A stretch of DNA of 63,706 nt, counting the filler, from Hausera hauseri (lineage: Eukaryota): NCBI GenBank assembly GCA_046269625.1. It is 8 parts of 8 records of this genome, joined end to end, with 100 filler letters (N's around TTAATTAATTAA, not from the genome) between each part and the next. Parts side by side here need not be neighbours in the genome. Positions count along the whole stretch, not along the records: positions 1 to 5,438 come from JBJURY010255069.1; 7 more parts are not named here. One strand, 5' to 3'. Positions 1 through 55,047 of the stretch are shown in pieces; position 1 is the stretch's first letter, and each line of letters begins with the position of its first letter. A program made the position numbers and the translations under genes. The notes beneath the pieces are model-generated. The model did not search any database. It saw nothing but the letters and a program-made list of their open reading frames with translations, and had not been told where the DNA came from.

Positions 1-585
1 CGATTTTAAAACCAAAGGCGAATATACCACTGAGCATATTACAAAGCATTTCACGAACCTCATCACCGTGGCTATGATATGTAAACTTACCGAAGTTATG
101 AAAGGCACTGAACGATATTTTGTTCACTCTCGTTCCCGTTGGCGTTGTTTTTAAAATGGCGGTGTCTGCTCGGTTTTCTCACAAGGCGCAGAGCTCTCTA
201 ACGATCCCGTGCTCTACAGATGTTCTGGACCAAGGATTTAAAAAAAGGTCGGTGAATTTGATATATTTCCATTCCATACATTTATTCATGGGTCTTAGAT
301 TTCGTAATTTTTTTCATACATCTCAGCTCAACTGAACATATTTACTGTCGACGCTTTTTTAAATTTGCGGACAGTGAGTCGTTGGTTAACGAAATGCCAG
401 TTGATTCAATACTGGACAAATTGTTAGAAAGACATTCATCAAGATTACGGAAAACCAATGCCATACATATACCGAGCTGTAGTCACAGGACATCTTAGTG
501 CTTACCACCTTAATTAGGAAAATCGACTGTTGTATCAAAGGGATTTTTGATGCGACCGTACCGTACGCACCACACCGCACACCCG

Positions 586-822
586 ACTTATGCGACAATT
601 TCGTTTCACTTGTTTTATTATTTGAAAATAAACATACAAACTTACTACATTCATAATTTAGCAACAATTGGAAAATTGTCAGGCATACTACAACTACAAA
701 CAGCTTTCATTAATTTCCTTCTTAGCTTTAACGGACTTTTTCTTCAACAATGAGACATAATAAGTTACACCCACTTATCCTCGACACCCATACTCACCGT
801 ACGTTACCGTTTGCTAGGTGGA
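586..822 (+). pseudogene. Ubiquitin-like domain in frame with Gag (copy A), one internal stop at 751-753
   Basis: The frame of ORF 547..753 continues into ORF 811: ...ATIGKLSGILQLQTAFINFLLSFNGLFLQQ*DIISYTHLSSTPILTVRYRLLGG|SDPK. This resembles ubiquitin ...TIENVKAKIQ...RLIFAGKQL...STLHLVLRLRGG. Confidence 0.65.
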
Positions 823-1830
823 TCTGATCCAAAAACATTTTCTAAGGACCAACAAGATTTTACCGACATTCCCACTATAAATGTACCGTTAAATTCACCT
901 CTAACCCCGCCGTCTACTGTAAATCTACCTTGCGTAGAATATTTCGCCGACACGCAACATTCCAGCCGGACGTGGTTAGACTTTCATGCGGCTTGGTTGA
1001 AATCAAATAATATTGTCGACTCGTTCCTTAAAGCAAACAGTTTGCTAATACTTCTGCCTTCCAACATTAAGTCACAACTTTCCAACTTGTTGGAAATTTT
1101 CCAAAGCAGGGACCCATATAAAACACTTTTTAGCTCGGTACTAAAAATCACGAAATCAACTCTGTATAATATTATCCATAAATATTTTAAGGACAACACA
1201 ACTGGAAATCAGAAACCCTCAGAATTTTTACAAACATCTTTAACCCAATTAAACAAGTTAAGGGTAAATCAAACAAACAATGCCGATTTATTGCGTAGAT
1301 ATTTCCTTCAATCGGTACCGAAAGAAATACGCGCTTTACTAACCGTCGTTGAAGACATCGCTACGTTAGAAAAGTTAGCACAATTGGCTGAGAAAAGCTA
1401 TGAATTATTGAATACACACCATACTCCTATTGTCGCAGCCATATTACAACCGTCTATGACACCACCCAGTGCAGAAATCGTAGCGTTGAATAACCAAATA
1501 AACTCTCTCGGGGCTGCAAACACGGCAATACACCAAGCCATTTCTGCTTTAACGTCTAAACTGCACAATTTATCCATGCCGCGACGAGAACGATTCACAA
1601 CTAATTACAGCCGTGCTCCATCGAACAATTCGAGATCCGCTAGGTCCCCTACTCGACGTATGGTGTGCTATTATCACACTATATTCAAGGACCAATCCAA
1701 CAAATGTTGCTTAGGGTGTAAATTCTTTACACCCGCTTTTCAAAAATCTGACATTGTTTGTATTTACCATAATATGTTCAGCAATAAAGTTTGAAACTGC
1801 ATCAACTGTTGCACGTTTTCCAGTTGGCTT
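823..1830 (+). pseudogene. gag: Ty3/gypsy Gag with duplicated C-x2-H-x4-F...C...C knuckle
   Basis: ORF 811..1794 contains DPY, GNQKPSEFL, LLRRYFL..P..IRALL, CYYH...KCCLGC and a second CIYH motif. Homologous to copies B and C. Confidence 0.85.
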
Positions 1831-1959
1831 AACCAATTCCATCGTATTTCTTCCGACTCCCCAAATCCTTCTATCCAAAAAAACTGACGAAGCCGCCAGA
1901 TGTTTCGGCACATACTGGCAGAGTCAAACGTCTTCATTCTAATAGCCATACCTACGCTA

Positions 1960-4775
1960 CTTTCACATTAAAAGCCTCCTTAACATCCAAACCCAATCAA
2001 TCAATCAACTTCCTCATTGACTCAGGGGTTGCTGTTTCTTTGTTACCACCATCCATCTCACCATCTAACACCAAATTTTACACAGCTAACGGCCAAGCTT
2101 TACGTGTATTCGGTACAGCCAAGGTTTCATTCACATTGACACCACTCTCCGACGTTTTCAATTGGACCTTCATTGTCACCGACACACAATCTCCAATATT
2201 TGGGTCTGATATCATATTTTTCTACAACCTCCTTGTAGATTGGCGACAATGTCGGATCATTAAAAGCAGTTCAACAAATCCAACCTCCACCAATAACCAA
2301 CCGACCACGCAGTCTATTTCACCTATAAAATCCATATTAAAGAATCCATCAACCAATGTGAATAAAAGCCTTATTAAAACCAATATAAAATAGTCCTATG
2401 TTTCTGTTGAAGTCCGGTTTAGGCGGCCCGATTTCTACCGTTTCTCACACTAAGTCCAATAAAGCCACTGCCGTGACAATAACAGCCTTTACTACGCTTA
2501 GCCAAGAAATGCAACAATATTTAACCAAATTTTGTTTTTATACAATAAAAAAGACCCAGCATTTCGACCGGCTAACACGACGTTTCAGCATATCATCACA
2601 AAAAGTCCTATGTCCGTTAGGCAAAACTCCGTCCACTTTCACCACGCCGTCGACAGGCCGTCCAAGCGGTATTCTCTGCTCTCGAGCAAGCTTGCATTAT
2701 AAAACGCTCGAAATCACTGTGGTCATCACCACTCCACGTCATTCCAAAGAAAAATGGCGCATTCCGTTTATGCGGTAACTATCGACAGCTTAATAACGTC
2801 TCTACCATGGATGCTTATCTTCTACCTTTCATTAAGGATATATTACATTCTTTGCACAAAACCAGTATTTATTCAACCATAGGTCTTGAAAACGCCTATC
2901 ACCAAATACCGGTAGCTGCCGAAGACATTCAAAAAACGGCCATTATAACACCTTTTGGTCTTTTTGAATACCCATTCATGCCGTTCGGTTTAAAGAACGC
3001 AGCACAAACTTTTCAACGGCACATTGATTCAGTTCTTTCAGGTTTGTCATTCATATATACGTACATTGATGACATACTAGTCGCATCGGCATCGCCGAAA
3101 CAACACGAAGAACATCTCAGACTAGTTTTCCAACGTTTACACTACTACAATTTGCAAGTGAACTTTTCTGTGTTCCTTCTTCCAGAAAAAGGTCAATTTC
3201 CTTGGCCACGTCATCACAACTGACGGTCACAGTCCACAGCCTGATAGAATTCATCAGTTACGAAACATCGATTTACCAAAAATTATTACTGGCAGGAGTA
3301 GATTTCTTGGGACTTTACATTTTGTCCATAAATACGTTCCACACTGTAGCCAGTTAACTGCTCCTTTCGCTCAACTAGGAGCAGGGCCGAAGAAAAGCTC
3401 ATATATTGGACACTAGAACTAGTTAACCAGTTCAATGAACTCCGTGACAAGCTTAAATTGTCGAGATTCTAGCTTACCCAAAATCTGATGCTGGCCTTAT
3501 TTTAATAATCGACGCATCAACTAGAGCAGTGGGAGCGATTCTTCATCAAATATCCCAAGGTATAAATGAGCCGTTAGAATTCTTTTCACGTAAGCTCCAA
3601 CCACAAGAATGCCGTTATTCCACCTTCGTTAGAGAACTCCTGGCCATTGTTTTAGCTCTGAAACATTTTTCGCATTTACTGATCGCTCGTTCCTTTACCA
3701 TTCAAACGGACCACAAACCTCTCGTTTACGTAATGAACATGAAACAACTATCACTTCGACAAGAACGAATATCTTATACCTGTCAACATTCAACTTTACA
3801 ATTTGCCATATTTCTGTCACAGACAATTTAATAGCCGATTTCTTATCACGGTCAGTTGATGCAATTAACGTCACACCAATATTCTCAAAGGAACAGTTAA
3901 TCTAAAATTCACCTTCTCCTGAAATTCTGAGACAATACAAATCCATGCAAATCATCGATGGAATAGCCATGGACACTTCGACACCTGGGAAACGTTTACC
4001 AATTTTGGCACTTTCTATCCAACAAACTGCATTTCAACATGTTTATTCTTTGCATAATACAGGTTCCAAGGCTACATTCCGCCTCCTCAACCGTCATGTA
4101 ACATGGCCATCGATGAGATCTGACGTACAGGACTGGGTTAGACAATGTGTGGCTTGCCAAAAATTCAAAGTAGCTAAGCATCTCAAGCCACCATTATTTC
4201 ATTTTGCCTGCACGGCCCGTTTTGAATCTGTACATCTAGATATTGTTGGACGATTACCTTCCGAAAACGGCCACCAATTCATCCTAACAATGATGGACCG
4301 CGCGTCCCTTTGCACTCCATCAATATAGACTCCATAGCCGATGCATTCATAAGGATTTGGATTATCCGCTTCGGTTCTCCTCGCTATATAATTACAAATC
4401 AAGGTCCACAATTTGAATCGAACCTATTCAAGTCTTTAGTTAATAAACTGAGCACAAATCTATACACACAACTCCATATCACCCCAAGTCAAGAGGCTTA
4501 TTGGAACGCTTTCACCGCACACTTAAAATCTCCCTAAAAATTCTGACCGAAACTCATATGAACTGGACTACTATTCTTCCTTTCGTTCTACTCGGGTGGC
4601 GCAACACTCCCTCTACCACCACTGGTTGCGCACCCGCTGAAGCACTTTTTGGTACCACAATTCGTGCACTCTTTGAACTTACCGACTTAGATAACACGCC
4701 GACTGACAAAACTATCCGTTCCACACAAAATCATTTTGTTCAGTTAAGTCAGGACTCCTTCTGTAGAATAATACA
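1960..4775 (+). pseudogene. pol: pol remnant (PR-RT-RNase H-IN), frameshifted, integrase C-terminus deleted
   Basis: ORFs 2040..2393, 2807..3223, 3529..3831, 3945..4328, 4310..4537 and the 5' part of 4501..5178 carry consecutive Pol motifs. Confidence 0.93.
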
Positions 4776-4781
4776 TGTGAC

Positions 4782-4850
4782 TGTGGTGCCCACCGCGGCA
4801 AGTGCCCTTTGGCCAATTTGGCCGGGCACAGCCGGGCGTCCGTTGACGTC
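4782..4850 (+). repeat. 5' portion of family LTR (truncated 3' LTR of copy A)
   Basis: TGTGGTGCCCACCGCGGC...GGGCACAGCCGGGCGTCCG matches the copies at ~9955, 18583 and 48778 (minus strand). Confidence 0.8.
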
Positions 4851-5438
4851 AACAATCATGACCAATTTGGCCGAGTATTATCGAAAATATGACGAAAACC
4901 GTCTTTTCTATCATTTTTGTGGTGCGTCCAACAATAGTCACAGTGTGGAGAATATTATCAATCGATTAGGTAGACACATGGAGCGAAAATTGAACATGAA
5001 GTTACCGAAACAAGATGAAGGTAACAACAAAATGGAGCTAAAAGCACTATTGGTGGAAGGTGACTGTGCAGATATGATACTTATCATTGAAGGCATAGAC
5101 GAAATATCTGATGCCAATTTGGTCGCATACTTACCACACAAACTGCTCAAACTCGACTTCTCATTATGTCATGTGTAGCCAGTGATGAAGTACAAACTGC
5201 ATACAACAAACTAATGTCATCTGAAGTGAATATTACTGATCCTCCTGTTGAACCCATATCAGATGATGAGCTTACCCAAATAATCAATATGTATATGAAT
5301 AATTTTGGTAAACGGCTAGACAATCGACAAATAGGGATTCTTCATTCATTCGAGAACTTCTGCAATCCTCTGTGGACGATAACAGCATGTGAGGAACTGC
5401 GAGTACATGGCGATTATTCAACATTGACAACTGTTATT
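4851..5438 (+). pseudogene. NACHT/P-loop ATPase fragment (TEP1/NPHP3/TTC41-like), intron-less, frameshifted
   Basis: LFYHFCGAS, Walker-B-like ILIIEGIDEI, and NPLWTITACEELRVHGDY across ORFs 4501..5178 and 5166..5486. Confidence 0.7.
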
Positions 5439-5538: not shown

Positions 5539-5764
5539 AAATTTGCTTTCCCGGATACAGTGACTGTTTATCCATTAGCCGATCAAAATTTGTTCTAATA
5601 TCTTCTAAAGTACCATTTTCACCAAATGCTCCCCACTCAGTATTGCTTATTACAAATTTTGCCTCTGGGGGAAGCTGATTTTTATCAAGTGTCAACACTT
5701 TTGAAGTTTCTTCTAAGTAACACGCATTGGATCCAGTACCAACAATGGGACCATTTGCACAATC
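5539..5764 (-). pseudogene. Hexokinase fragment at the 3' end of the chimeric ORF
   Basis: IVGTGSNACYLEE...NTEWGAFGENGTLEDIRTNFDRLMDKQSLYPGKQ is the animal hexokinase signature. Confidence 0.92.
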
Positions 5765-5804
5765 GGTAATCTTTGCATTGTGGTCCACAATTGCATCCAT
5801 ACTG

Positions 5805-6145
5805 GCCTGTGCACTCATATTCTGACGAAGATATTCTATCGTTTTGTCGTGTCTCTTAAGTTCGTGATCAATGAGCTTATTTTGCTCCGATTCTTCCTTT
5901 ATACTCAATAATTTTTGAGTCAAATCATCGTTCATTAAATCCGACTTGAATTGGTCATATAAGGTTTTCCGTTGTATCTTCATTTCGTCAATTTTGTCTA
6001 AAAGTCTCTTGCTTTCGTCCAGAGATGATTTAACGTCTCCATCATTGGACAGATGTTTTAGTGTCGGTAGACTTTCAACAAAACTATCAATGGGTTGATC
6101 CAATAATTTCAAGGATTGGAAAGTGGATGAAAATGCTTCTCGTAA
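5805..6145 (-). pseudogene. PTPN23/HD-PTP (ALIX-family) V-domain fragment inside the chimeric ORF
   Basis: LKLLDQPIDSFVESLP...KRLLDKIDEMKIQRKTLYDQF...DDLTQKL...LRQNMSAQ resembles the HD-PTP coiled-coil V domain. Confidence 0.75.
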
Positions 6146-6335
6146 CTGGACGTATTTTTTTACGCATTTATGATCATGTAGCACTTGGTAAACAAATACT
6201 TTGACGTTTTGGCACTTCTTGTTGCATTTGATGAGTCGAACTGGTTTTAAATCAGAGTCACATTTGCATTTGCGTTTTCGTACAACTTTATGAGCGTAGC
6301 ATTCACAATTTTGATGCTTCCACCTCAAAATCGAA
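6146..6335 (-). pseudogene. Cys/Lys-rich fragment of an unidentified protein inside the chimeric ORF
   Basis: Abrupt compositional switch to WKHQNCECYAHKVVRKRKCKCD...KCNKKCQ...HKCVKK. Confidence 0.5.
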
Positions 6336-6339
6336 ATGG

Positions 6340-8220
6340 ATTCAAGTCTCTTTTTACGTTTTTCTTCTCGTTTTGCAAGAATTTCAGCCTTTTTCCTTTG
6401 AGCTTCATCAGTTTGTAATTTTTCATTTTCCGATATCATAAAGGCAATCGGAGGTACAGGTGGACTGATATTAGCGCCGTCTTCATCTGTACTTGAGATA
6501 ACTAAGGAATTTGCAAGAACGTCACAATCATCTTCATTCTCCGACAATTCCTTGTTATTCACATCTATGAAATCTACTGATGGTATGACATGAACTTTAT
6601 TTTCAGCGATATTCAATTTATCATTAGCTGTTTCCATGGAGTTAGATATGACCATTATATCACTTTTGTTGTTAGCAAAATTTATATAATTAGTAACATT
6701 TTCATTTATTACATGATTCTCCAGAAATTCAACTTTCCGTTCAGTTTTGTTCACAGTATTCAAAACGTTAGATTGGTGTTGCTGTTCGTTGGTTGATTCA
6801 GAAAAAAAGGAATCTATAAGGTTCTTTGAGAAATCAGTTATTTCGGTCAATGATACCACATTATTTGTTGGATTTTCAGCAACAGATGCATTCTCTAAAG
6901 GCGTATGACTTTCGATTTTAGTAAAGTCTTTTAGATTTGTACTTAAGGTCAAATCTTTACTTGGGGAATTTTTCATAATATGACGAGATAAAGATGACTG
7001 CTGTTGACTCAGAAGTCGAATTTCCTCTTGAAGTGAAGTTAAACTTTTGTTCAAAAAATCCATTGATTTCTTATAATCCTCTTGGTTGACTTGGTTTTTA
7101 TCAGAACTGGTAATGCTGGCACTTGAAAGACTAGATATGGAAGGTGAACTATTCTTTCTTGATTCAAATGATTCTCCAGGTAGCACTGGTTCTATATTTA
7201 TATTTGAGAAAACATTGTCTGAATTACTATTGTTAACCATGACATTGTTGGACAAACCATTCTCTGTATGACTATTTATATCAAACATATTTTGAGCATC
7301 ATTGAAGCATTCATTTTTAATTTGTACAGGTGTCAGTGCTACCTCATTTTCTCTTATGGACTCTGGAAGCTCCATTCCATTTCTATCAGAACAAAACTGA
7401 ATGTCTGGTAGCTCCGCATTTTTATGAATTATTTCTTGTGACATCTCGTTAGTTTCAATTATTCGTTTAAACGGATGAAAACCATCGTCTACTGATGGTG
7501 ACGTTTTCAATTTTGGTTCATCGCTTTTTTCACTTTTAGTTACTACCATCGATAGCCGTTTGCTCGAATGGTTAACGTCGTTCTCATTCCCATTGAATTC
7601 CAAAGACCTTCGACGAAGTGTATCAATTTTCTTATTAACAACTTGGAAAAATGCTTTTTGTTTATTATTTTCTAAAGTCTTTTCTGACTCTTCCACTGTT
7701 TTCCTTTTGTTGTTTTGAATCTTCTGTCGGCTTAAACCAAACTGTATTTTCAAATCATTCATTTGGCCTTTGGTAAGACTTTGAACATCCACTTGATTAG
7801 AACTGTTAAACCTAGCCGCTTTTGTAGGTGTCAAGGGAATCGACACAACATCATTTTTATTCTTTTGAGACAGCCATGTAGTTTCATTACTATTAACAAT
7901 GGTTACTTTTGGTCTTTGTTTAGTAGCATTCTGTTGTTTCTGCTGTTGTTTTTTCTGGAACTCTGACTTGAGGCTAATTGTCATAACCCCTGGACTGATT
8001 TCATGATTAACATGAGGAAGTCTGTAAGTCATATTTAAATGTCTAGGCAAAAGATTTGAGGTAGGTGTGGATACCAAAAAAGACTCGGCGGTTCTTCATC
8101 TGTAGGTGTAAGAAATATTTCAGGAGATGTGTCGCCATCACCGCTTGGCTTCAGATCTAATGTTGGCTTAAACGACGTTCCATCGTTGTTTAAATGCTCG
8201 TTAAAACTCCTGTCAAACAA
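6340..8220 (-). pseudogene. CAMSAP/patronin central fragment (coiled coils), frameshift near 8077
   Basis: CC1-like LKIQFGLSRQKIQNNKRK...KQKAFFQVVNKK, CC2-like DYKKSMDFLNKSLTSLQEEIRLLSQQQ, and FMISENEK...KKAEILAKR. Confidence 0.75.
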
Positions 8221-8419
8221 GTAAAAACGCTTTGGAATCGTTGGAGTTATTTGAGATATCGGAAACTCTGCGATTCTGATGATATTCTTTGTTGGTTTCG
8301 TTATGATTTTTTAACAGACTGGATTTCACTCTTCAAAAGATTCTCCAACGACGAGAATTTCTCGCTCAATCGCAACAAATTGTCGACGAATTTGTCGATA
8401 TTGGAGGAATCCTTCAGAT

Positions 8420-9170
8420 TTGGTGCCACGGAAAACAATGTAAATTCCCGTCGGAGCGCTTCATCTTCTCGTCCGTTTTCTCGTAACAGTTCGACAAGTG
8501 TCGACAGGATTTCTTTGTCGCTTGTGCGATTGTACGCCAACTTGGCCACTTCAATGGACATTGGCAAACCGTTGACTTGTTTAGCAAACTCGATACAATG
8601 AAATCATTAGTCGCGTCCTTTCGAGTCACAATGTACAGCAGTTACAAACGTCGTTAATGCATCTTTGAATTTACCTTGATGTTCACAGACTTGACCAAGA
8701 ATTTGATAAGCACTGGAATGTTGTGGATTTTCACGCAAAATCATATCGGCTAATTCTTGAGCCTTATCGAAATTGTTCGTCCACAAATAATTCTGCGCCG
8801 ATCCATAAAAACATATTTCATCCTTGTTTTTCGCTATTTGCAAGTCTTTCTTTGATCGTCATCAATGTCTAACAGTTTTGTTGGAAAAACGATTTCGTCA
8901 CTGAAATCAGAGATTTTTCAATTCTTCGAATTTCGTCATTTCAGCTAGAAACGATTCACCATGAACTGATCCGTTACATGAGTGATCTTCGGCAAAAGAC
9001 TTGTTCGAAGTTTTATGGTGCAATATATATGACTTATCTGAGGTTTTAAAATCCATTTCAGACTGATCAGATTCTTCGGATTCTGATTCAGTTTCTCCAG
9101 TAAAATTCAGGTCCTCATCAGAGTCGTCATTGTCTTCGTCATAATAGGAGTCTTTCTAAAAACTGCCATG
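8420..9170 (-). pseudogene. Acidic N-terminus plus TPR fragment (TFIIIC subunit 3-like), disrupted
   Basis: ORF 8607..8843 has TPR helices (ILRENPQHSSAYQILGQVCEHQGKFKDAL) and there is a D/E/S-rich upstream segment. Stops and frameshifts are present. Confidence 0.5.
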
Positions 9171-9710
9171 TTTTATGTAATAATCTTTTACAAAGTTCTT
9201 TTGATAATCTGGATTTAATTTCTGATTTATCGTTAACCACATCCGTATCTGGATTGTCCATTTTTATGAAAATTTACTCGAAATATAATCAAATCACAGA
9301 AACAATGTCAGTAATGTTTCTGTCTGACACCAATTTATTAAGTGAACTGTTTGATAAATATCCACTTATACAGTAGAAATTTCAAAATGAGCAATCAATT
9401 CAATTTTAAAAATAAAAAGATGATCGGATTAATTCCAATTGTAGAGAATAAAAGAAATTTCAATAGATTTCCAAATAAATAGAGCACATATTCTAAAAAA
9501 TAAGATCCGACAATCTAAAAGGAAAAGAACTGATAAAATTGTATTCAAATTAAATTACAAGTTGTCCCTCAAAACATTTAAATTATTTAAACAANNNNNN
9601 NNNNNNNNNNNNNNNNNNNNNNNNNNNNNNNNNNNNNNTTAATTAATTAANNNNNNNNNNNNNNNNNNNNNNNNNNNNNNNNNNNNNNNNNNNNAGTGAA
9701 CTATAATTAT

Positions 9711-9955
9711 TGTAGTTACCAAGATTATTGAAAGTATTTGATGGAAAGCTACATGAGTTTGTTATTTCGTTATTTTTTTTTGAAATTGTTAAGTGAATTA
9801 TGCTTCTGATTTGAGGATAATTTTCTCTTCTAATTCGACGGATTAAATTCTTAAGGGCGAAGAGTCGGACCTGGTTATTGATCTGACGCGGCGATAGCGG
9901 ACGCCCGGCTGTGCCCAATTAAATGGACCAAAAGGCACCGGCCGCGATGGGCAAC
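9711..9955 (-). repeat. 3' LTR of copy B (distal end uncertain)
   Basis: TGCCCATCGCGGCCGGTGCC...GGGCACAGCCGGGCGTCCG...GATCAATA matches the other LTR copies. Confidence 0.7.
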
Positions 9956-12900
9956 GAAAAATGTCTGTCAGTTGGTCTTAATGTGAAGAAGACATTTGGT
10001 GCTTTTTACTGATTCTTCCCTGCTATACATGCTAAATGTGACTCTGCGTTGTTTATCTGTATGTGGTGTGTTTGTTTACGGAGTTTAAAATTTGGGAAAA
10101 ATTGTCCGATTTTTGTGTAAGTGTTGTGTCGTGCAAAGATGAGTCAGAATGAAGAGAAGAAGGTGAAGGAGAAAGAGAGATTGTTGGAGACGGACGGTTG
10201 GAGGTATTCAAGAGAGTGTTAGAAGACAAAGGACTGACAAAAGTGTAGAGGCGGACGAAGGAGGAGAGACGAAAAATGGGGTAGAAATTGGAATTGTGTT
10301 AGGCGAAAGAGTAGAAGTAGAAAATGAAATAGAGGTAGTGGTAGAAATAGGAAGGGAGATAGGACTAGAAATAGAAGGTGTGGAAAATGATGAAGCAAAA
10401 CTAAGAGCAGAAAGAGGGGCCGGAACAGGTGTAGGAATAGATATAGGAATAGCAGGAAATGTAGGAGTGAGAAGAGGTTGACATGTCGATTGGAGAAGTG
10501 CCGCCGAAAAAGAAGCCGGGATTTAAGTTGGTAACATGTACTGTGAGTTCTTTGCCGTCTTTAGAAATAATAGCGTTGTGCTAATGTAGTTGTACCAGTT
10601 TATAGGGCCCCATATACCGCAGTTGGAAACAGCACGGCGTTTGATTTTTTAGCCATACGAATTTTGCCGAATGCAAGTCTTTGGATAAATATGTTTTGTC
10701 TTTGTGAAGTAACCTGCAAAACGAATCTTTGCTGACCGTAACGAAGTGATTTTGCACCGCCGGTATGGTTTCATCTGTAGGAGTATCGTCTAGGGTAGTT
10801 AGTTTGAACAATGATCATACAGGAATTCCGGATAAGGCTTTAGTAGGTGAGCATCCCGTAGAAGTTGACGGAGTGTTCCGCAAGCCAAGCAGAACAAACG
10901 GAAGAAGGTTCGTCCAACTAGTGTTGGACTGCAAGGATTCTTAATGGCGTTTTCAATGTTTGGTGGAAGCGTTCTAGGAGGCCATTCGATTGGGGATGGT
11001 AAAGCGTAGTATGTATGTGATTGATCCCAATCGGTTAGAAAGGGATTTGAACAGGTTGGATTCAGACTGTTTACCTTGATAAGTGATGATGAAATGAGGT
11101 TATCCAAATCTGCTAATCCATGTACGAATGAAAACGTCAGCTATAGTATCAGTGTTTGTGCTCCGCAGAGGGATGGCTTCTGGCCATCGCCAGGAGCGGC
11201 CATCATAGTGAGAATGAATTGATGACCGTTGTCTGGAGGAAGAAGGCCAACGATGTCGATATGCACTGATTCGAAACGCGATGTGCAGGGGAAGTGGAAT
11301 ACTGGTGGCTTTAAATGCTTAGTTGTTTTGTATTTTTGGCAAGCCACACAATCCTTAACCCATGCCTGCACATCGGAACGCATTGACGGCCAAATTACTT
11401 GTCGGTGGAGTAAACGAAAAGTGGCTTTAGCACCAGGGTGGTGTAGCGAATGTACACTATTAAATGCTTGCCTTCGCAAAGATTGTGCAAGAATTATTAC
11501 GGAATGACTTGGTTTGGAAGTGCCTAAAGCCACGCCGTCAACAATTGTAATGATGAGTTGAAAGAATTAAGCATGTCCTGTGGTGGCTGGTTGTGTTGAA
11601 ATTGTGCTTGGGTAAAGATAGGTGAAAAACTAATCGAACTAACCGACTTTGATAAAAAATCGGCAACTAAATTATTAACCCCATTGATGTTTTATGTCGA
11701 AGTTAAATGTTGACAAATGATATTTGTCGTTCTTGGCGTATGTAAGGATGTTTCATGGCCATGATGTTATGTAAAGGCTTGTGATTGGTCTGTATGGTAA
11801 AATGGCGAGCGACAAGTATGTGGGAGAAATGCTTTCAAGCGAGAACGATGGCCAATAATTCCCGATCGAACGTTGAGTATCTAGTTTCAGGGGATGTTAG
11901 CTTATGAGAGAAAAATTCTAGCGGTTGATTTTCTCCTTTGTGGGTTTGGTGAAGCACAGCACCTACCGCAGTGGTTGAAGCGTCTGTGGTAAGGATAAGT
12001 TCCGCGTCACGCCTGGGGAAACCGAGAATGTCGACGGTCTTAATTTCTTCGCGTAACTTATCAAACTTATCAACCAATTCATGTCCACTGCGTTGGCTTA
12101 TGTTTTTTGCCGCCACATAAGTGTTCAAATGGTGCTGTCAGTTCATAACAATATGGTACATATTTATGTACAAAGTGTAGTGTACCAAGGAAACTGCGCA
12201 TTTCAGTGGTCGTACATGGTAGTTGGATATTCTTAAGATCATCAACTCGGTCTAGTTGGGGACAGTGGCCGTCTGGTGAAATAACGAGGCCCAAAAAGTT
12301 GATGTGCTTTTTGAAGAAATGGTATTTGTCGAAATAGACTTGGAGATTATGGTGGTTAAGGCGTTGGAATATTTCGCGGAGTTGTTCTTCGTGTTGTTTG
12401 GCTGAAGACGAAACGACCATAATATCACCAATGTAAGAGTGCGCAAACAGGATATCTGAAAGAATTGAATCAATGTGTCGCTGAAAGGTCTGCGGCATTT
12501 CGCAAACCGAAAGGCATAAACAGGTACTCATAGAGACCAAAAGGAGTAGTGACAGCAGTCTTTTCTGTCTTCGGGTTCAACTGATATTTGGTGATATGCT
12601 TTGGCCAAATCGATGGTCGAATAAATTGCGGTTGAATTAAGGCGATGCAAGATATTCTTGATTAGTGGCAGGGGTACGCATCCATAGTCAAGTTGTTCAA
12701 CTGTCGGTAGTCACCACATTGTCTAGAAGTTCCGTCCTTTTTTGGACAACTTGTAAAGGTGACGACAAAGGGGATTTGGGACGGCGTACAATGCCGGAGC
12801 GTTCTAGTTCAAGAAATTCGGCTTCTACGCCTGCCTACGACGAGGTGACAGTGGTCGCACCTTTTAGCGTATTGGTCGTTCATTCTGTGTAACTGTGGTG

Positions 12901-14813
12901 TAAAGTATTGTGTGCAGGAGTAAACGTACGATCTTTTTTAAGTACGCGTGGACATGATGTGTTGACGAATTGCTGCAAAGTTGTAGGCAACAGAGATTCG
13001 GTGATGATGGTGAAACAGCTTGAGTAGTAGCGGATGCAATTTGTGAATTGTTTGCTGATGTAAAGTCAGTTGGTATTAGTTCAAATGGTAGAATTGAAAA
13101 TGGTGTTGGATGAAGTGATTTCGTCGAGTGATTTAACGTTGGTGACAGTACGACAATTAAGGACATCAAACCTCAACTGAATATCAATATGATGATTTAA
13201 AAATTTACGAAATGACATATTGTTACGGAAATTCGAATTAGTTTTTGATTTCCCCAAAATTGATCTCCGCGTCTCGATCTACTGCGCGATAGTCTAAATG
13301 CTATTTATGCGCTTGCTAACGCTGCTAGAGGTGCCACTTCTCAGACATTGTTGACTGCAGTCAACCAATAAATTATAATTCGATAGAAAATCAGAACATG
13401 GAATTGCCGTCAGGACATTAGCAGCTGTGAACGTCAAGTGGAAAGATGAAGGAAATTTTGGTAAGATAAAAGATAATTTATCCATGCCAGAAATGTGCAG
13501 TGGTTGACCCGAAGCAGTGTATAAGGACTTGATTTTGAATGGAGAATTTTGGACAGGAAAAGTTTGGAAATAAAGAAATCGCTGCACCTGTATCAACGAG
13601 GAAATCAACGGATTGCGGTGTAGGAGCGGTGATTGCAGGCTTTAGAGTAAAGACAGCAAAAGAGGCGTGCTGGGATTCAGAAGGTGAAGCAGTGCCTTTG
13701 CGAGAGTTTGCCGTGACCTCTGATGGCAAACTTAGTTTTTTTGGAAAGGTGAACTAGGACGACTATTAGAAGAAAATGTAGCATGTCCGTCGTTCATGTC
13801 TATTTTGAAAGTGCAACCTGAAATGCATTTACGTGTTCGATTTTTAAACTTTGTGGTAAATGCAAACAACGATGTCTGAATAAAAACTTCTGTTGTAAAA
13901 TTTGCACCCTAGGCAGCATTTTTTGGCAGTTATGTTGAATCTGCTGTGATAATAGCAGATAGACGACTGCGCAGATGATGATGACCCGTTTCTAGGTACA
14001 GAATGGGCACGATCAGCGACAAAGTCATTTCGACGGGAGAGCGAAAGTTCATTTAATTTGTTATTAATGTTGTTAATTGTTGTGTGTAGTGCTGTATTTT
14101 CGGCACGTTGTTGATTTAACTGTTGTTCTACCGATGCATCGTTGCTTTGAATACCGTTTGCAGCAACTGCTGCCGAAACGATTGGTGGGGAGTTTAGGTG
14201 TAAAACGTTATAAGTCTTGTCGGATAATTCGGCCAATTTTTCAAGAGCCGTGGAGTCCTTCACGACGGTAAGTGGAGCTCGAATTTGGATGGGCAATGCG
14301 TTGAGGAAGTAGTGGCGAAGCAATTCTGGATTATGTTCTTTCGTGATGCCGAGGGTTTGTAGGTGTGCCAAAGAAGTACGTAAAAGTCTGATGGTCGTTG
14401 TGTACCTATGGCGTTATCATGAAAGAAGCGTTGTATGATGGTGTCCATTGAGGGTTCTGTGATCTTAAGAATGGCGTTGAAGAGTTTTGAATACGGGTCA
14501 GGAAGTTCGAAGATTTCAATGATGTTATAAATTCGTGTCTTGATATTGTTGGGGAGTAATAAAAGGAGGTTGTGTGCTTCAGTTAAGGAATCGGTAATAT
14601 TGTTTGTTTGTAGCCACCGTTGGTGGAATTGCAACAAAGTTTTGCTGGTGCCTTGCTTGTCTATAAGGAATTCAGTGTAATGAGGGAAAGGAGCGGAAGA
14701 AGTAGTGGTTGGGAGTTATTAGCAGAAGTAGTAGTGGATTTTTGGAGTAGTATAACGGGTTTTGGTTTTGTGGTGGCTTTATCCGTGGTGTCTATAGTTG
14801 GCGATGAATTCAT

Positions 14814-15050
14814 ACCGCCACAAATGCGAAAGTGTATATGGAGGTCGATATGAGGCGAAGAATGATTTAGGGTCCCAGATATAGGTACGTTAGAGCCGTT
14901 GTGCATGATGTAGAAATTAGATGAGTAGGTAAAAGTGCAGATAGTGTTGTAAATGTCTGTAGTGTTTATATGCGATGTTGTAATTGTGTAGACATGTTCA
15001 TTATTTAAAAAAAGAAAAGGAAAATGGTGTGGATATATAGCCAGGGACGT
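14814..15050 (-). pseudogene. Ubiquitin-like domain in frame with the Gag N-terminus (copy B)
   Basis: ...FLNNEHVYTITTSHINTTDIYNTICTFTYSSNFYIMHNGSNVPISGTLNHSSPHIDLHIHFRICGG|MNSSPTIDTTD. Confidence 0.65.
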
Positions 15051-15133
15051 GCCGTGGGGCCCCTACGAACGATGACGCTCGACCGACCGGTCTAAGGCTG
15101 GCGACCGGGTAACGCTTCCACCGCGACGAACCA

Positions 15134-15150
15134 CACATTTTGGGGTGACA
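15134..15150 (-). promoter_or_regulatory. Degenerate primer-binding site (tRNA-Trp-like) of copy B
   Basis: TGTCACCCCAAAATGTG lies at the same position as the copy C PBS and resembles TGGTGACCCCGACGTG. Confidence 0.4.
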
Positions 15151-17789
15151 GCAGCCGCTTCAGTGAGTTTGACGAGAGAAACAACGGCAATCGCGTGTTT
15201 TCTGTTTCAAGTTTGGTGTCATTTGTTTTAATGTCCATGTTTGACTATCTGTTATAAAGGTCAATATACTGTTTCCAGTTGATCAAATTGGATCGAAATG
15301 GGGTCGCACTCAAAAATGTTGATCAACTGTTTTTACTTTTATGTGATTAGCCTCGGTCTTTTTCTCTTGATTAGTGCGTGTTCTTTTCAAAGTGGTAATT
15401 GATTTAGTAAGTAGGCAAACTATATCATTCAGTGCTCGGTTGATAAGTTTAAAGGTTGTTCCGAGTTGTTGTCAACTTCATTGAATATATGAATTGTCAT
15501 TCAGGTATCCTTGTGTCCAAAAGGTCAAAAAATGATTAAAATGAAAAATCGGATTATGAATTTGTCATAAAAGTCAGGGAATGCACCAGTTGTTTTAACA
15601 TCGTAATAGAATCGTATAGGGCGATTTGTAATAGGTCCTAAAGGCACGGCATAATGATTTATGCATGTTTGAAAAACGTCATCCAAACTTTGATCGTTAT
15701 TAACACTGGGTAAAAGGAAAGGTATGACTTTGACAAACTTTGAGACAAAATTTAGAGATTTTATCAAATGAGCATGAGTTGCAATAAATACGATAAAGCT
15801 TAAAAGGTCGCAGGATATGCCGGTTTCGTTTTCGATTATGAACGAAAGGGAATCAGCGGTGTGATCTAAGAGAAACGGAGGCAAGCAACTAAAACTAATG
15901 TGAACGTTAATCAAAGTCGACGAAACTTTTACTAGATCGCTATTGTACGATTTGTACATAAAAGTTGAAGTTGGGTCGGAGACGTGTCTCTTGGAAACAA
16001 TAACTTCGGAACGAAAGGTAGTTCGTTTCTGATGACTCACCATAAGTCGGTAATGTTCCATTTGTGTTATATTAATTTTAAGTTGAGCGGGTGTTGAATG
16101 ATCTAAGATTTGCGGTTCCGTTTCGTAAATTACAAATTTTTCTTTCGGTTCGTTTAGGGAAGTAAAGGCCGGTGGGGTTTGTATTTTGTTAGGAGGCAGA
16201 ATTAAAAGTTGGACACAGACAAATCTTTTATGACAGCTTAATGAAGTACCCTCTTCTTGAGACGAGGAAGATATTACATAGAAATAATTGTGAATTTTTA
16301 TTGTAGCCTCTAAAGATGAGAAACGCCTGTTCAGGAATCTTTTTAAAAGATGCTTTGATTACCAAAGTCACTTTTACAAAGGACTAAAATTAGTAATATT
16401 CTGCTTTTAACTTTCGCTAAAATACGCCCTGATTCAGTTATCCGATTGGGACCAATGTTGCACTCTTTTATGTTGTAACAGCTGGAATGAGAGCGTTACA
16501 AAACTCGATTACGATATTCTCTTCGTAAGTGCTAACAATAATTAGAAATTTAGAAACAAAATGTTTGCTCCTCACGACGCCACCGGTTAATCGGCTCTTC
16601 GCTTCCACGTCTCAAAATCCAAATGGTGCGGAGCGGTCCCAAAATAAATCTTCATCAAAGCAATCGCACCCATAAACTGTCAAAAGTAGTGCACACAAAT
16701 CTGGCAATATGGCGAAAACTTGCGTGGTATAATTTCCTTAACGTCGGATAAAAATGTTTGTACGCGTAAGATGAATCAGAGGCAAAATGAAACATAAAAT
16801 GTTAAAATCGTTCATCGAAAACTTTATCGCTTCATATATTGTAAAATGGTATAAAATACGATCGTCGATTAATCCATGAAAATACATCAAAATTACCCGA
16901 CCCTGCGTTTCTAAACCGTTCCACAAATATTAAAGAATAATCCATTTTATCAAAGCTGGCCGTCGTAAATACTGGAACCAAATTTGTAAATTCGTCTGAC
17001 ACAATTTGTGGGTTATGTGGTTGATAAGTGATATCTCGAACATAGATGATTCCTGCAAAAAATTCTGATTGAAATTCGCCATTTTCTTATAGCCCATTTT
17101 CTTTGCTCGTCTCTTCATAACTTTAAAAAAATCTTTATAATTCTCTCGATTAAACTTTCTTTCGCAATAATCAAAAGATAGTTGTGCACTACCAAAAATT
17201 TCCAATTTAAAATTAATTTAATGTAGTAAAACTATTAAAAACCAGTAATAAACGCTCACGGATTCGTCTCACCAGCACATTTCAATTCGTTGACTCATTT
17301 CACATAACTCCTGTGGGTCCAAACATCGTTAAGACAACTGATCAAATTGGAAACGGATTTTGCTGATTTTATAGACAATTCGTCGTTTAATTGAGACGAT
17401 TTCTGGATTTTTGAACATTTCTTAATGACTTTGGTGTTTTCCGTTTCGTCAGTTTTACAAATGGACCCGTTTTTAATTTCTGATGTACCAGCAAAATTAA
17501 TCCGAATCGATTTCATATCATTACCAAACGACGATCCTCGTAATTTATTCACAACAGTTATGACGATATCGACCGAATCATATAGAACAAGAATAATTTT
17601 TGTTTTGAGGCTACTGAATTTGTTTAATGTACGATGAAAATTCGGTTTGGTCGATGAATGACACAGATAAACCGATTTTGGTGTAGTTGTGAAATTCGTT
17701 TTCTTGTTCTGTGCTTGGATAATACGTTACACATTTTACCATATTTTTTACGTTGTTCTCTTTAACATTATGATATACGTTGACTTTTC

Positions 17790-17965
17790 CGCCCAAATTA
17801 TTTGCCGGAAATGTTTAATTGTTGTCGGCTAAGGTCCCTGTGCCAAATGTAACATCTGCTTTATTTGTTATTATCCAGTGACACGTAATTAGCATTTATG
17901 TAATCCAATTTCTTTGCATTAGGTAAAATTACACGAGTGTCATAGTAAGCTAAAACATCTGTCGG
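17790..17965 (-). pseudogene. Classical protein tyrosine phosphatase fragment, disrupted
   Basis: DVLAYYDTRVIL...DYINANYV...YI/AQGP*PTTIKHFRQIIW, with stops and a frameshift. Confidence 0.85.
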
Positions 17966-18370
17966 CATTGTATAATCTCGCGGGTCAGAATTAACTTTAT
18001 CGTTTTTAATCGGATCAACAAAAAAAGAAAGAAGCATCCAAAAATACTGCGATTCCATATAGGGTAATTTCGATATGCAATATACCAAATATTGTGCATC
18101 TTGGTTTTCTGAACCCCATGAATGGAATGATTGTTTCGAACTATTTCATAAAAACACCGGTAATGAAGAATGTTGGTCTTGAGCCGAATCTGGACATTTG
18201 TTAGCGATAATGGAACTCGATACTGTCAGCATTTTGTAGGTGTATCGACTGATAAAACTGAGACGTTCGACCAGCTGAATGTACAGAATCTTGGAGAGCA
18301 TAAGCGAATCAAGCAAACGGGTATCATCTGCTACGATCGTTGTTGCTACGTATGTTGCGAACGAACTGTT

Positions 18371-18583
18371 TCTAACCGCTAGCGATTTCTAAACATATCC
18401 TAAATAGAAAATACTGATTAGTTTTGCTGACAGTTCCTCTCGTAATCCGTCGATCAATGCAGCGGGTGAAATTCTCGAGGTGGAAAGTCGGGCCCGACTA
18501 TAGATCCAACGAGGCGATAACGGAACGCCCGGCCGTGCCCTATTAAAATGGGCCATAGGGCACCGGCCGCAATGGGCACCACA
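18371..18583 (-). repeat. Isolated, apparently full-length family LTR (~213 bp)
   Basis: Starts TGTGGTGCCC and ends CTAGCGGTTAGA, compared with CTAGCGGTTGCA in copy C. No TSD is visible. Confidence 0.75.
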
Positions 18584-18954
18584 CAAGACTTTGTCAGAGA
18601 AGGCGATGTTGATCCTGGCAGAAAATTGAGCAACCAACACGTCACGCTCATGGTTGTAGCCAAATGGATAGCTGTGAGAAGCACCGTGTATATTTAGAGG
18701 CTCAGAATGCGTTATTTTGACTTTCTTGGCAAAATTCTTTTCATACTATTAATCAGCATTATATTTTGCACATCTCTCAGACTTTTTGTTCCAAAAACCC
18801 AGATTTAAGTATGCAAATTTTCTTTAAAATCTGCGTAATGCAGTATAATTAAGCTGCTTGTTATAATAGTCAAGTATGGATGGACGAAAAGGAAACTTAC
18901 ACTTCTGGTAACTCCCTTGTTAATTGAAACAGGATAGAAACGATATTTTTGTCA

Positions 18955-19639
18955 ATATAAATTCAACGAAGATTTTCTATTCTATCAAACGTTGAACTTA
19001 TACTTTCCATTTAGTTAATTCTCGCATAATCAGTAAACCAGTGCCTCAGACAATGTTTGTTTGTGACATTCTGACGACAGACGAAATTCTGTTTCTTAAT
19101 CGTGTTTTACATACCAGCACGTTAAAAGATTTAATGACAAAATTACAACTGTATTTGGAAAGTATACCTTCCAACTTTGGTAGCTCCAAAGATATGACTG
19201 AGTTGAATTATCAAGCAAATTTCGAATACAAATTACTGAATTGGCTTTTGAAAAATATCGCAGCTCGTTATTTGTTTCACAAAAAGCATAGAGGTTATGC
19301 TTTTGATCCTGTTTGTTAGTATTTGTATTGCATTCGGTTAAAATTAGATGCCATTTTCTCCTCAAAGGTAACTTTCATTTGAAAAATGGTGCTATGTTAT
19401 GGCGTATTAATTGGCTTGCTGGTTCATCTGCGCGTGGTTTTCAAACTGCGTTTGGTTTAATGGTTAATTACAGGTGGTTGTTGGTCGGTTGACAGAAGAT
19501 TTTGAATTCTGTTTCTAGATACTTTCTGGAAGAGACAGAGACTTACAGTCGTGATTATATTGACAACAAGGTCATTCACGTTTCCGATGATGTCAATAAT
19601 CTTCTTAAAGGGGTTCCACCTCCTGACTTAGAATCATAA
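18955..19639 (+). pseudogene. MLYCD: Malonyl-CoA decarboxylase 3' part with two short introns (19315-19367, 19474-19518); upstream part appears deleted or decayed
   Basis: Spliced translation [36 protein letters not shown]...GLMVNYRYFLEE...*, GT-AG introns of 53 and 45 nt, and IFYSI near 18975. Confidence 0.85.
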
Positions 19640-19935
19640 TACATATTAGTTTTGACTATTTTATATTTAAATGTTTTTTGTTGATGAGATTAGGTATAAT
19701 AACACTAGTTTCATTCTTCCCTTTTCAGCAACATTCTGTGGAGATGCGTAAATATATCAAAGTTGACATTTGGTGAATTTTAATATTTTTGTATATATGT
19801 TTTTCATAATTTAATTTAAAATATTTCCCAAAAGTNNNNNNNNNNNNNNNNNNNNNNNNNNNNNNNNNNNNNNNNNNNNTTAATTAATTAANNNNNNNNN
19901 NNNNNNNNNNNNNNNNNNNNNNNNNNNNNNNNNNN

Positions 19936-22900: not shown

Positions 22901-24182
22901 AATTTGTTGGTATTTCCTCCACTTGTCTGTTTTCCAACAAAGGAGGAGAAAAGTTAAGTCCATCATTAGCCTGTTATCGGCGTTGAAGAATTGAACACTT
23001 TTTTAGGATAAGAAGAGATGGCGATAAAGATTTTTAAAAGAAAAATAAAACTTTTGAACTTGTTTTTCAGACATTTGTGAGTACGGAGCATATTCTGACA
23101 AAGAGAACTGTGTGGCTTGTGAACCAGGAAAAACCACTTTAATCAGGGGAGCAAATTCACCTCAGTATTGCATAGGTTGACCTCTTTATTTCAAATCTTC
23201 GTGGCTTAGAATAGTCCACTTTTTTTTTTTTTTTAAGTTCAAAAATATATGCTGACTGTAAATGAATGACATTTGTTTCACAGATACCTGCAGTCCTGGC
23301 TGGTACTACTCTCTGATACATATGGCATGTGAGAACTGTCCAGATGGCTTGTACTGGAGTGAAGCAGATCAGATGTGTCATGTCTGTCCCTATACTTCGT
23401 TCAATGAAACCTGGTGCTTGCCGGGAGAAGGTATGGAAACTTTTTTAAGAACTGTGAAGAATAACAACGGTAACCAGTCTGATCAGTAATGATTTCTTGA
23501 CCTAATGAATTTTTCTTCTCACAGTGAGAGCTGTCAGTAATCCACTTGTAAATATTGAGATGGATATTAACATTGTAACACCCAGATGTCTGAGAGATGA
23601 TCCCGCATACTTTAATAACATAGATGAAAGAGAACTAGTTCGTCTCTTGGTATCCCAAAGCAACTCCTATTCAGGGTAAGTTAAAGCTTCCCAGTCCTTA
23701 TATGCCTGTAAGAAAAGATGTGCTTTATTTTATGTGCAACAAATACTGTTTCTCACTGTCTTGGCTAAAAAGATTTCATGGACTCACTGTAATTTCAGCC
23801 GGTTTTGCTCACCCTATGTTGGCTGTGAAAATGTGATCTCCAACTACACCGACAATAAAGTTTGTGTGCCAGACCCATCCTGCACTAGTACAGATACCTG
23901 CAAAATGTTCCATACCAGCATTCACATTGGTGTCTACCACATCTGGTAAAATTATTAACATATTGGGCCTAATAGCTAGTTAAAGAAAAAAAAGTTTGTT
24001 TAAATAGAAAAATGTCTTCAGTCCAATTAAATCCACTTGCGTCTTAAAAATGAGTCCAACTTATCGTAATCTAGGTCGTACATAGCATCTGTCAGTCAAA
24101 GCAATGGCCACGATCAAAGCACTGTAGACCTGCTGATGAGAAATCTCTATGACACAACACAGGTGTATCAGTGGATTCCAGC
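19936..24182 (+). CDS. 15-exon internal repeat unit (~660 aa) of a large extracellular protein: EGF and laminin-EGF-like, Ca-binding EGF, SEA-like and ephrin-receptor-like (GCC2/3) Cys modules
   Basis: The GT-AG exon chain was traced by hand with compatible phases. Examples are CANWTWGENCTETCNC, DINECNQTSSPC and CVACEPGKTTLIRGANSPQYC. No start or stop codon lies within the unit. Confidence 0.85.
24106..24182 (+). repeat. 77-nt exact terminal repeat of 19936-20012 (circular or collapsed-tandem contig)
   Basis: GGCCACGATC...GGATTCCAGC is identical at both contig ends. Confidence 0.97.
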
Positions 24183-47991: not shown

Positions 47992-48190
47992 GGAGTACCT
48001 TGTTCGATTTGATATAGTTTAATTTTTAGAAGTCGTAGAACAATAATCACATTTAATGTTGGAATGACGAATGTTCCAATTGATTTGATATACAACGATA
48101 TAATTTCCAACCAAACAATAGTTTTTGTAAAATGTGTAGTTGTCGGGGTATTTGGTAGCAAATGTACTGTAATCAGAATTCAGACAGAAA
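47992..48190 (-). pseudogene. Possible GPCR-like transmembrane fragment, frameshifted
   Basis: LYIKSIGTFVIPTLNVIIVLRLLKIK resembles TM5 of peptide GPCRs; the match is short and weak. Confidence 0.3.
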
Positions 48191-48554
48191 TTATCAACTG
48201 ACGAAATAGGAGAATTCTTCCGTTTGTTTTGACGCATTTTCAGATGGAACCCGTAATCTGGACAGTTCTTCTTGAAGTGAATCGTTTATTCTTTTTAAAG
48301 TTTAAATTGTATAATCTTTGTGTCTGAGGTCTGTATGAGCATCTGACAACTGTGATTTAAGATTTTCCAATTTAACATTCAAAGCAGCGACTTTTTTTCG
48401 ATCGGTCGGAGAATTTCCGAATGCTGTTCTTGACAAATTAAAAAGTTTATCATATGATGATTTGACTTTGAGTCTAGACATTTGTTTAATTAATTTATCC
48501 TTTTTTCCTAACTCATCTTGATAAGCTGTTATTTGTTCTTGTATTTTGAAAAGA

Positions 48555-54069: not shown

Positions 54070-54306
54070 GCCACCACGGATGCGGAAGTGTATGTGAAGG
54101 TAGATATAGGATGAATAAAATTGTAGGGTTCCAGCGATGGGTTTTGTAGAGCCATTTTGTGTGGTATAAAAGGTAGATGAGTGACGAAGAGTGGACATGA
54201 TGTTGTAGATGGTTACAGTGTTTAAGTGTGTTAATGCGGTTGTATGAATATGTTTATTAATTAAAAAAGAAGAGGGAATAAGGAGGGGTCGTGTAGCCAG
54301 GGGCAT
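54070..54306 (-). pseudogene. Ubiquitin-like domain (79 codons, ATG to GG) in frame with the Gag N-terminus (copy C)
   Basis: MPLATRPLLIPSSFLINKHIHTTALTHLNTVTIYNIMSTLRHSSTFYTTQNGSTKPIAGTLQFYSSYIYLHIHFRIRGG|MNSSPTIDTTD. Confidence 0.7.
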
Positions 54307-54390
54307 GTCATGGGGCGGCAGCAAACGGTGCCATCTGATCCAATGGTATAGGATGGGAGGCCGGGACAGCCTCGCCGAGGCAGATCGCAA

Positions 54391-54405
54391 ACTTCGGGGT
54401 AGCCA
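54391..54405 (-). promoter_or_regulatory. Primer-binding site, tRNA-Trp-like (copy C)
   Basis: TGGCTACCCCGAAGT matches TGGTGACCCCGACGT (complement of the eukaryotic tRNA-Trp 3' end) at 12 of 15 positions. Confidence 0.6.
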
Positions 54406-55047
54406 AGTTCCCTGTATGTAATGTTTTTCCATCGGTCACTTTCGGATCTGATAGAACGAGGTTTGATCTTTTAATTTGTGCAGAATTTGTAGTTAAATTT
54501 TTTCGTATTTCTGGAAAATTCTCTTCTTCTCGTTTGTGTTTCATTTGTACGTCTTTCACACGTTCGCACTCTTCGCGTTGTTTTTGAGTTTCAAACTCTA
54601 ATTTGCTCACTGTTTTACCAATAGCCGGTCCAATTGGCTGACAAACTTAGTTGGATGTGTCGTGTAATCCTCGTGGAATTGCCTGGTAAAATGGAGTTTC
54701 ATCGTTATAGTTTATACCAGGTTTCTCCTTGTTGTTTATCGGTTTTCCGATTATTCTCACTTCTTAAAATTCATGTTTTTCCTGTATAGCCGCCAATCTC
54801 TTTGCTATTATCAGCTGCCTTTCTTGTCCTTTATGTTTGCCTTGGTTTCTTGTGTATTTATTAGCCTAGCACGTGACTCATTCAACATATTCTTCCCAAG
54901 TCAGTTTACGATGGTGTTAGGTCAAATAGGCATTTGTTGCTTGTGCCNNNNNNNNNNNNNNNNNNNNNNNNNNNNNNNNNNNNNNNNNNNNTTAATTAAT
55001 TAANNNNNNNNNNNNNNNNNNNNNNNNNNNNNNNNNNNNNNNNNNNN

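Follow-up and report, generated by a model that had tools for sequence, protein, structure and literature searches.

The 63,706 nt of Hausera hauseri DNA analyzed here (the window) consist of contigs joined by N-spacers. Three of these contigs each carry a decayed copy of the same kind of LTR retrotransposon, the copies being designated A, B, and C (Table 1); in each copy, a ubiquitin-like (Ubl) domain ending in Gly-Gly (GG) leads in frame into Gag. The LTR starts at 4782, 9955, 18583, and 48778 have a G+C-rich head of about 70-115 nt in common, with unrelated sequence beyond it. The one at 4782 is assigned to the putative 3′ LTR of copy A because of its position and TGT start. Intronless host pieces follow the LTR heads of copies A and B, the copy A sequence including a weak NACHT-type Pfam match (NPHP3_N, E 0.0096). 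In copy B, the whole region from the head to the PBS-like motif appears to be one long LTR. Within it are a phosphatase piece at 17864-18145 (-) and, upstream of the PBS-like motif, a single 277-codon frame at 15528-16358 (-) with a weak TRAP-alpha match and a Ufd2 core (E 3e-12).

Elsewhere in the window are an EGF-repeat host gene in short exon-like pieces (19936-24182, +); a contig of 57% G+C with one ~7500-codon open frame of repeats, by eye resembling a giant bacterial adhesin (25398-47891, -); and a fragment of a protein-primed-type DNA polymerase B (59106-60448, +; DNA_pol_B_2, E 5e-4), which is presumably Polinton-like. The EGF repeats and other host pieces suggest that the host is an animal. 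An intronless mosaic at 5540-9594 (-), has TPR pieces followed by a ~850-codon frame in which a piece of an ALIX V-domain (E 4e-13) is joined to a piece of hexokinase (E 1e-17); like the host pieces of copies A and B, it may represent LTR cargo.

Table 1. Retrotransposon features in the window, by copy.
Feature	Position	Strand	Basis
Copy A contig	1-5438	+	
Copy A Ubl domain	595..822	+	Family profile, 23.4 bits, 0/1000 shuffles; AlphaFold beta-grasp, VIA Z 8-9.5 to Ubl domains
Probable frameshift lesion, first strands of copy A Ubl	628..652	+	Indel near 635; profile gain with break
Premature TGA in copy A (decay lesion)	751..753	+	Closest homologues, P0002 and P0004, stop-free
Copy A R-L-L-G-G tail	808..822	+	GG joined in frame to Gag at 16/21 loci; deubiquitinase predicted to cut after 822
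Copy A Gag: linker, capsid fold, coiled coil, CHCC knuckles	823..1887	+	Capsid structure matches; 44% identity to P0002
Copy A Gag premature stop, in second knuckle	1792-1794	+	
Copy A broken pol, gypsy order: protease (DSG near 2010), RT, RNase H, integrase	1863..4821	+	tblastn pieces in three frames; Pfam RVT_1, Integrase_H2C2, rve_3
Copy A putative 3′ LTR head (shared motif, about 70-115 nt), then intronless host-like sequence	4782..5438	+	
Copy B contig	9695-19835	-	
Copy B upstream region: LTR head at 18583, host-gene pieces (phosphatase, TRAP-alpha, Ufd2 core), PBS-like motif 15151-15140	15140..18583	-	
Copy B Ubl, RICGG then Met	14814..15035	-	Profile 34.2 bits
Copy C contig	47992-54947	-	
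Copy C: ATG 54432, PBS-like motif 54405-54394 read in frame, Ubl (RIRGG, then Met)	54070..54432	-	Frame open throughout

Classification of the Elements

A Gag with the capsid fold (for copy A, VIA Z 9.6-10.4 to MLV, PEG10, and copia capsids) and a pol in the order PR-RT-RH-IN mark these as Ty3/gypsy elements. Within that group they are CsRn1-like, a placement made by comparing features with the published description of CsRn1. The CsRn1 clade (CsRn1, PwRn1, AgCR) has a CHCC knuckle, CX2HX9CX3C (PMC2582038), which is present in one or two copies in 31 of 34 family proteins; the order of pol, the TGT start of the LTR, and the overlapping Gag and Pol frames are likewise common to both (PMC2582038). 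Points of difference are a doubled knuckle (29/34; copy A has one intact), the Ubl-GG before Gag, and an open leader predicted to initiate in the LTR. The main text of the CsRn1 paper does not mention ubiquitin (PMC2582038). Against the published CsRn1 PBS (tRNA-Trp), the motif of copy C agrees at 10 of 12 positions and that of copy B at 8 of 12, and no PBS-like motif was found upstream of copy A; nine loci differ, one subclade having another putative PBS, TGGTGTCAGAAG.

Reading Frame of the Copy A Leader

An earlier note on this DNA proposed that reading through a single TGA joins the ORF at 547..753 to Gag. The frame does run this way: the TGA at 751-753, its sole stop between 547 and 1792, is followed by RLLGG (GG at 817-822), Ser, and Gag. 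Also as described there, the Ser has no ATG near it, the first in-frame ATG past GG being at 1456, 211 codons downstream. The domain is far diverged from those of copies B and C (18-19% identity), with the R..GG tail kept. Copy A was offered as independent support for the arrangement; it is divergent, but the three copies are relatives, and their agreement is therefore not phylogenetically independent.

The TGA is not fixed among family members. The two closest homologues, P0002 (44% identity over 92% of the query, aligning to window positions 568-1821 in one piece) and P0004, have no stop in leader or Gag, and copies B and C are open across the domain. Since copy A is also broken elsewhere, with a further Gag stop at 1792 and pol spread over three frames, the TGA is attributed to decay. 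Its position as the only stop in so long a stretch of frame could conceivably suggest programmed read-through, or a regulatory stop metering Gag, but this is highly improbable and largely refuted by its absence from P0002, P0004, B, and C, and by the other damage to copy A.

A second break probably lies near 628-652. Many contigs from two DNA-type sequencing runs differ from copy A by an indel near 635, and the family profile (below) reaches its own start in copy A only with a break at about 628-652, a modest gain of about 5 bits (28.7 vs. 23.4). For both reasons the first strand as read in copy A is probably wrong: of the strand and helix pattern previously described, the overall beta-grasp is reproduced by structure models, but the first strand (LFYYLKINIQ) was probably taken out of frame. 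At 751-753 no difference is listed for the sequencing-run contigs, whose alignments end close to that site. No RNA run is among those listed for this sequence, which has no bearing on its expression. Copy A is a dead member of a Ubl-Gag family, and the TGA is one of several lesions.

Similarity to Ubiquitin

A Ubl profile was made from 33 homologous leaders, with no window sequence among them. The copy A leader scores 23.4 bits, which was reached by 0 of 1000 shuffles (maximum 8.6), and by 0 of 1000 when the last five residues were held fixed (maximum 12.8). For copy B (34.2 bits) the counts are again 0 of 1000 both for full and for tail-fixed shuffles; for copy C (15.5 bits) they are 0 of 1000 and 2 of 1000, respectively. 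In a six-frame search of the window the best three matches were the B and A leaders, followed by C.

Comparison with the Pfam ubiquitin clan, which the earlier note had suggested, gave a divided result. Searched singly, the A, B, and C leaders matched no ubiquitin-clan family in Pfam, and the copy A leader had no match among PDB sequences. The family profile (34-row alignment), by contrast, matches single ubiquitin chains over the whole fold (E about 5e-10), and a profile of 21 rows, from which the Pfam-positive members were removed, retains this match (E about 7e-5). The Pfam ubiquitin family matches 11 of 34 family proteins, 10 of these with E 0.01 or lower; among 14 locus leaders it matches nine with E 0.1 or lower, of which four pass the cut-off with 68-89 bits. 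Homology to ubiquitin is apparent through the family profile and through these relatives, not from copy A alone.

Two AlphaFold models of the copy A leader (X at the stop), both made with alignments that included near-ubiquitin rows, have a beta-grasp in the order strand-strand-helix-strand-strand. They match ubiquitin, ISG15, and other Ubls with VIA Z 8-9.5 and rmsd 2.2-2.6 over 70-76 residues; FUBI is among the matches, at Z 8.4. Foldseek gave a probability of 1.0 and a best E of 1.3e-3, with none reaching E 0.001. Similarity to Ubl domains, on which the reading as a Ubl depended, is thus found both by family profile and by fold. The domain in front of Gag is, as judged from these comparisons, ubiquitin-derived.

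A Ubl of the Sde2 type, to which the copy A leader had been likened, was considered and is not favored: the similarity to Ubls in general stands, but ubiquitin itself is nearest; no Sde2 family is among the Pfam matches listed for leaders, family proteins, and loci (25 of 39 families in one of these sets); and the Lys exposed after GG that is an Sde2 trait is Ser in copy A and occurs in 1 of 34 proteins.

Distribution among Gag Relatives

A search of 1.84 billion representative proteins gave 1005 matches, of which the best 150 were used; a Gag tree of 149 rows was constructed from the matches listed. In one of its clades (support 0.967) a GG-ending leader is present in 44 of 49 rows, and the remaining five are short predictions. 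One of these five, P0018, is the Gag of locus L001, called from the Met after GG. Twenty-one loci from five assemblies were fetched by Gag motif alone: in 16 of them Ubl-GG is in frame with Gag, four begin too late to have upstream DNA, and one is broken. This clade-wide Ubl-GG-Gag order, with the open frames described below, supports the core of the earlier note, that translation as a Ubl-Gag fusion is favored. Scans for loci with family alignments found no relative in viral contigs (two alignments) or metagenome contigs (one alignment).

The Ubl-Gag layout recurs in a second Gag lineage (P0050, P0168, P0169), whose members have one knuckle. An AU test rejected a single clade for both Ubl-Gag lineages when three probably truncated rows were left out (p 0.0002) but not when they were included (p 0.52); with all rows in, a separate origin of this lineage is unsupported.

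Near-true ubiquitin is found in L002, L004, L010, L019, P0088, and P0168, which are interspersed with diverged-Ubl members on the Gag tree. Their domains form one clade in the Ubl tree (99/99), yet three changes are needed on the Gag tree. This is suggestive of repeated renewal of the Ubl from a host ubiquitin gene; it goes no further than that because an AU test does not reject these members as one Gag clade (p 0.077).

Some assembly effects were noted in the same material. Contigs at L002, L005, L012, and L017 have identical ends and are probably collapsed multi-copy elements, of use in mapping LTRs, and P0003, a DUF5777 beta-barrel piece followed by the back half of a family Gag, is probably an assembly chimera.

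Open Frames through the PBS

The motif TGGTGTCAGAAG, found in nine loci, was taken as the PBS partly by position, and we take it to be of the tRNA-Leu type from tRNA ends. Between this motif and the Ubl, the Ubl frame is open in eight of the nine loci (L019 is closed), compared with 0-9 of 300 dinucleotide shuffles for each and 2 of 18 off-frames. All eight open loci have an in-frame ATG upstream of the PBS, which lies inside the LTR in five with a visible polypurine tract; several LTRs have out-of-frame ATGs before the PBS. Which of the three frames runs through the PBS differs between members, all three being represented; what is kept is therefore not the leader peptide as such.

Across the 16 loci with Ubl-GG in frame, the frame is open for 4 to 856 codons upstream of the Ubl: at least 94 codons in 11 loci, 33-64 codons, ended by the contig start, in three, and 4 and 16 codons in the other two. 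These tests concern sister subfamilies. The copy A subfamily itself is represented by two stop-free proteins, with leaders of 97 and 628 residues, and by decayed copy C, whose layout is the same as in the sister loci, with an ATG upstream of the PBS-like motif and a frame open to GG. From the sequences, then, the Ubl would usually not be N-terminal; it would sit behind a long leader starting upstream of the PBS.

These leaders can include pieces of host genes. The 856-codon open frame contains one; L009 (P0013) is a single 1303-codon frame with a piece of cohesin SCC3, the Ubl, and Gag. The predicted proteins P0004, P0010, P0032, and P0050 also have host pieces ahead of the Ubl (CNOT1 and Rrp44, histone H2A, nucleotidase, RING).

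Conservation of the Domain

The Ubl core is conserved across the family together with GG. In the 34-row alignment GG is present in 34 of 34, but this is no test of its invariance because the rows were selected by GG; the unbiased count is that from the loci. Numbered through P0088, position 72 is Arg or Lys in 26 of 33 rows, Leu73 is present in 27, and Gly47 in 20. Ile44 has become Thr or Ser in 21 of 33, the near-ubiquitin members being the exception. The alignment thus indicates that an R-L-x-G-G tail is kept and the Ile44 patch mostly lost. Loss of this patch could hinder deubiquitinases that read it.

Immediately after GG there are 10 kinds of residue: Ser is the most frequent (14/34), Met occurs in three of the 34 and Lys in one, with the first residue of Gag mostly Ser, Ala, Met, Gly, Asn, or Thr. 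No Met precedes the capsid core in 22 of 34 family proteins.

For the Ubl, dN/dS is 0.18-0.44 (8 of 10 pairs computable), which points to purifying selection. For Gag it is 0.1 or less; for the leader it is 0.5-0.8, one near-identical pair excepted, in protein-guided alignments of what is poorly alignable sequence. Taken by itself, the copy A leader, which lacks Pfam and PDB matches, might have been suspected of resembling ubiquitin by chance, or of being a ubiquitin pseudogene located before Gag by accident, but the shuffle controls, the clade-wide presence of the domain, and the purifying selection refute this.

Discussion

Each part of this arrangement is known from elsewhere: ubiquitin can act as a processing signal, a PBS can lie within the Gag frame, and LTR elements can capture host mRNA. 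The closest working analogy is with cytopathic pestiviruses, where host-derived ubiquitin in a polyprotein serves as a processing signal, the role predicted for the Ubl here. In the BVDV strains Osloss, CP1, and CP Rit, cellular hydrolases acting on such insertions make the authentic N-terminus of the next protein (PMC8310069). The pestivirus ubiquitin frees NS3 and has been inserted sporadically, in near-identical form, in single strains of an RNA virus, whereas the retrotransposon Ubl is a fixed, old, diverged module of a clade, placed before a capsid protein.

Among cellular proteins, SDE2 and UBA52/UBA80 have in common with these elements a GG-ending Ubl fused to a protein freed by a deubiquitinase (PMC13572447), the cut being a predicted one here. 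The SDE2 Ubl is cut by USP5 after GG, exposing Lys, and shows that a divergent Ubl can be cut (PMC13572447). In these fusions and in FUBI the Ubl is N-terminal, while here a long leader comes first. Ty1 of yeast also has its PBS inside the Gag reading frame (PMC4974528); there, the stretch concerned is Gag itself (PMC4974528), and here it is a variable leader, in any frame, set off by the Ubl. LTR-mediated retroposition is a further case in which fragments of host mRNA are captured and shuffled by LTR elements (PMC5131818). It differs in that the elements described here have a gag-pol themselves; the host pieces lie within or beside their LTRs and can share a frame with Ubl-Gag. Full-text searches of the openly available literature listed no precedent for a retrotransposon with a Ubl-Gag fusion; the available text of a review of accessory retrotransposon domains makes no mention of ubiquitin (PMC6338049).

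With the Ubl domain, its GG tail, its fusion to Gag, purifying selection, and a frame open from upstream of the PBS into Ubl-Gag established, the likely interpretation is that the ubiquitin-derived domain before Gag in this CsRn1-like clade is a removable spacer, cut by host deubiquitinases after Gly-Gly. Translation would begin at an AUG within R/U5 of the LTR and continue through the PBS and a leader whose peptide would matter little. A host deubiquitinase, by analogy with pestivirus ubiquitin and SDE2, would then cut after GG, releasing a Gag that has a fixed N-terminus but lacks its own start codon. Such an arrangement would leave the RNA free to alter and extend its 5′ end, and to take up pieces of host mRNA there, so long as the frame stayed open.

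The released leader-Ubl-GG could instead be the point, acting within the host ubiquitin system as a modifier or a decoy; alternatively, cleavage could set the half-life of Gag through the residue it exposes, as happens with SDE2, where cleavage exposes an N-degron (PMC13572447). Retention of Arg/Lys72 and GG, and the presence of near-true ubiquitin in the six members named above, would fit such a role, which is compatible with removal as a spacer. It is nonetheless rather unlikely, considering that the Ile44 patch is mostly lost, the leaders are barely conserved, and the residue exposed varies so widely, with Lys all but absent from it.

A third alternative is that the Ubl stays on Gag as a folding aid, a matrix-like part, or a handle for proteasome targeting, with GG as a left-over or a site for the element's own protease. 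Many Ubl domains are integral parts of their proteins (PMC13572447), and cleavage of Ubl-Gag is a prediction. Against this, the tail (R-L and GG) has been preserved although overall identity is down to 18-19%, the patch bound by proteasome receptors is mostly gone, and each capsid subunit would have to carry a leader of as many as 856 codons. An integral Ubl is accordingly judged improbable.

Beyond the removable spacer itself, a broader proposal is put forward only tentatively. The captured ubiquitin may uncouple Gag from a freely evolving LTR frame that stitches together pieces of host mRNA, so that a chimeric host-fragment protein with a conjugatable free Ubl-GG would be made as well. The Ubl may be renewed from the host at times, and the design could have arisen more than once among LTR elements, the second Gag lineage described above being a candidate.

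There are two practical consequences for annotation. Gene callers may start Gags of this kind at a Met after GG, as with P0018, or may give odd fusions of host genes to Gag that are nonetheless real open frames, as with P0013.

If the proposed removal of the spacer is correct, it would be a new way of making Gag, with neither a short 5′ UTR nor an internal start, and a natural counterpart of the ubiquitin-fusion trick, in which the element depends on a host deubiquitinase. It would explain how the 5′ end of these elements can grow and gather pieces of host genes without loss of Gag, and would point to an exon-shuffling route into translated chimeras.
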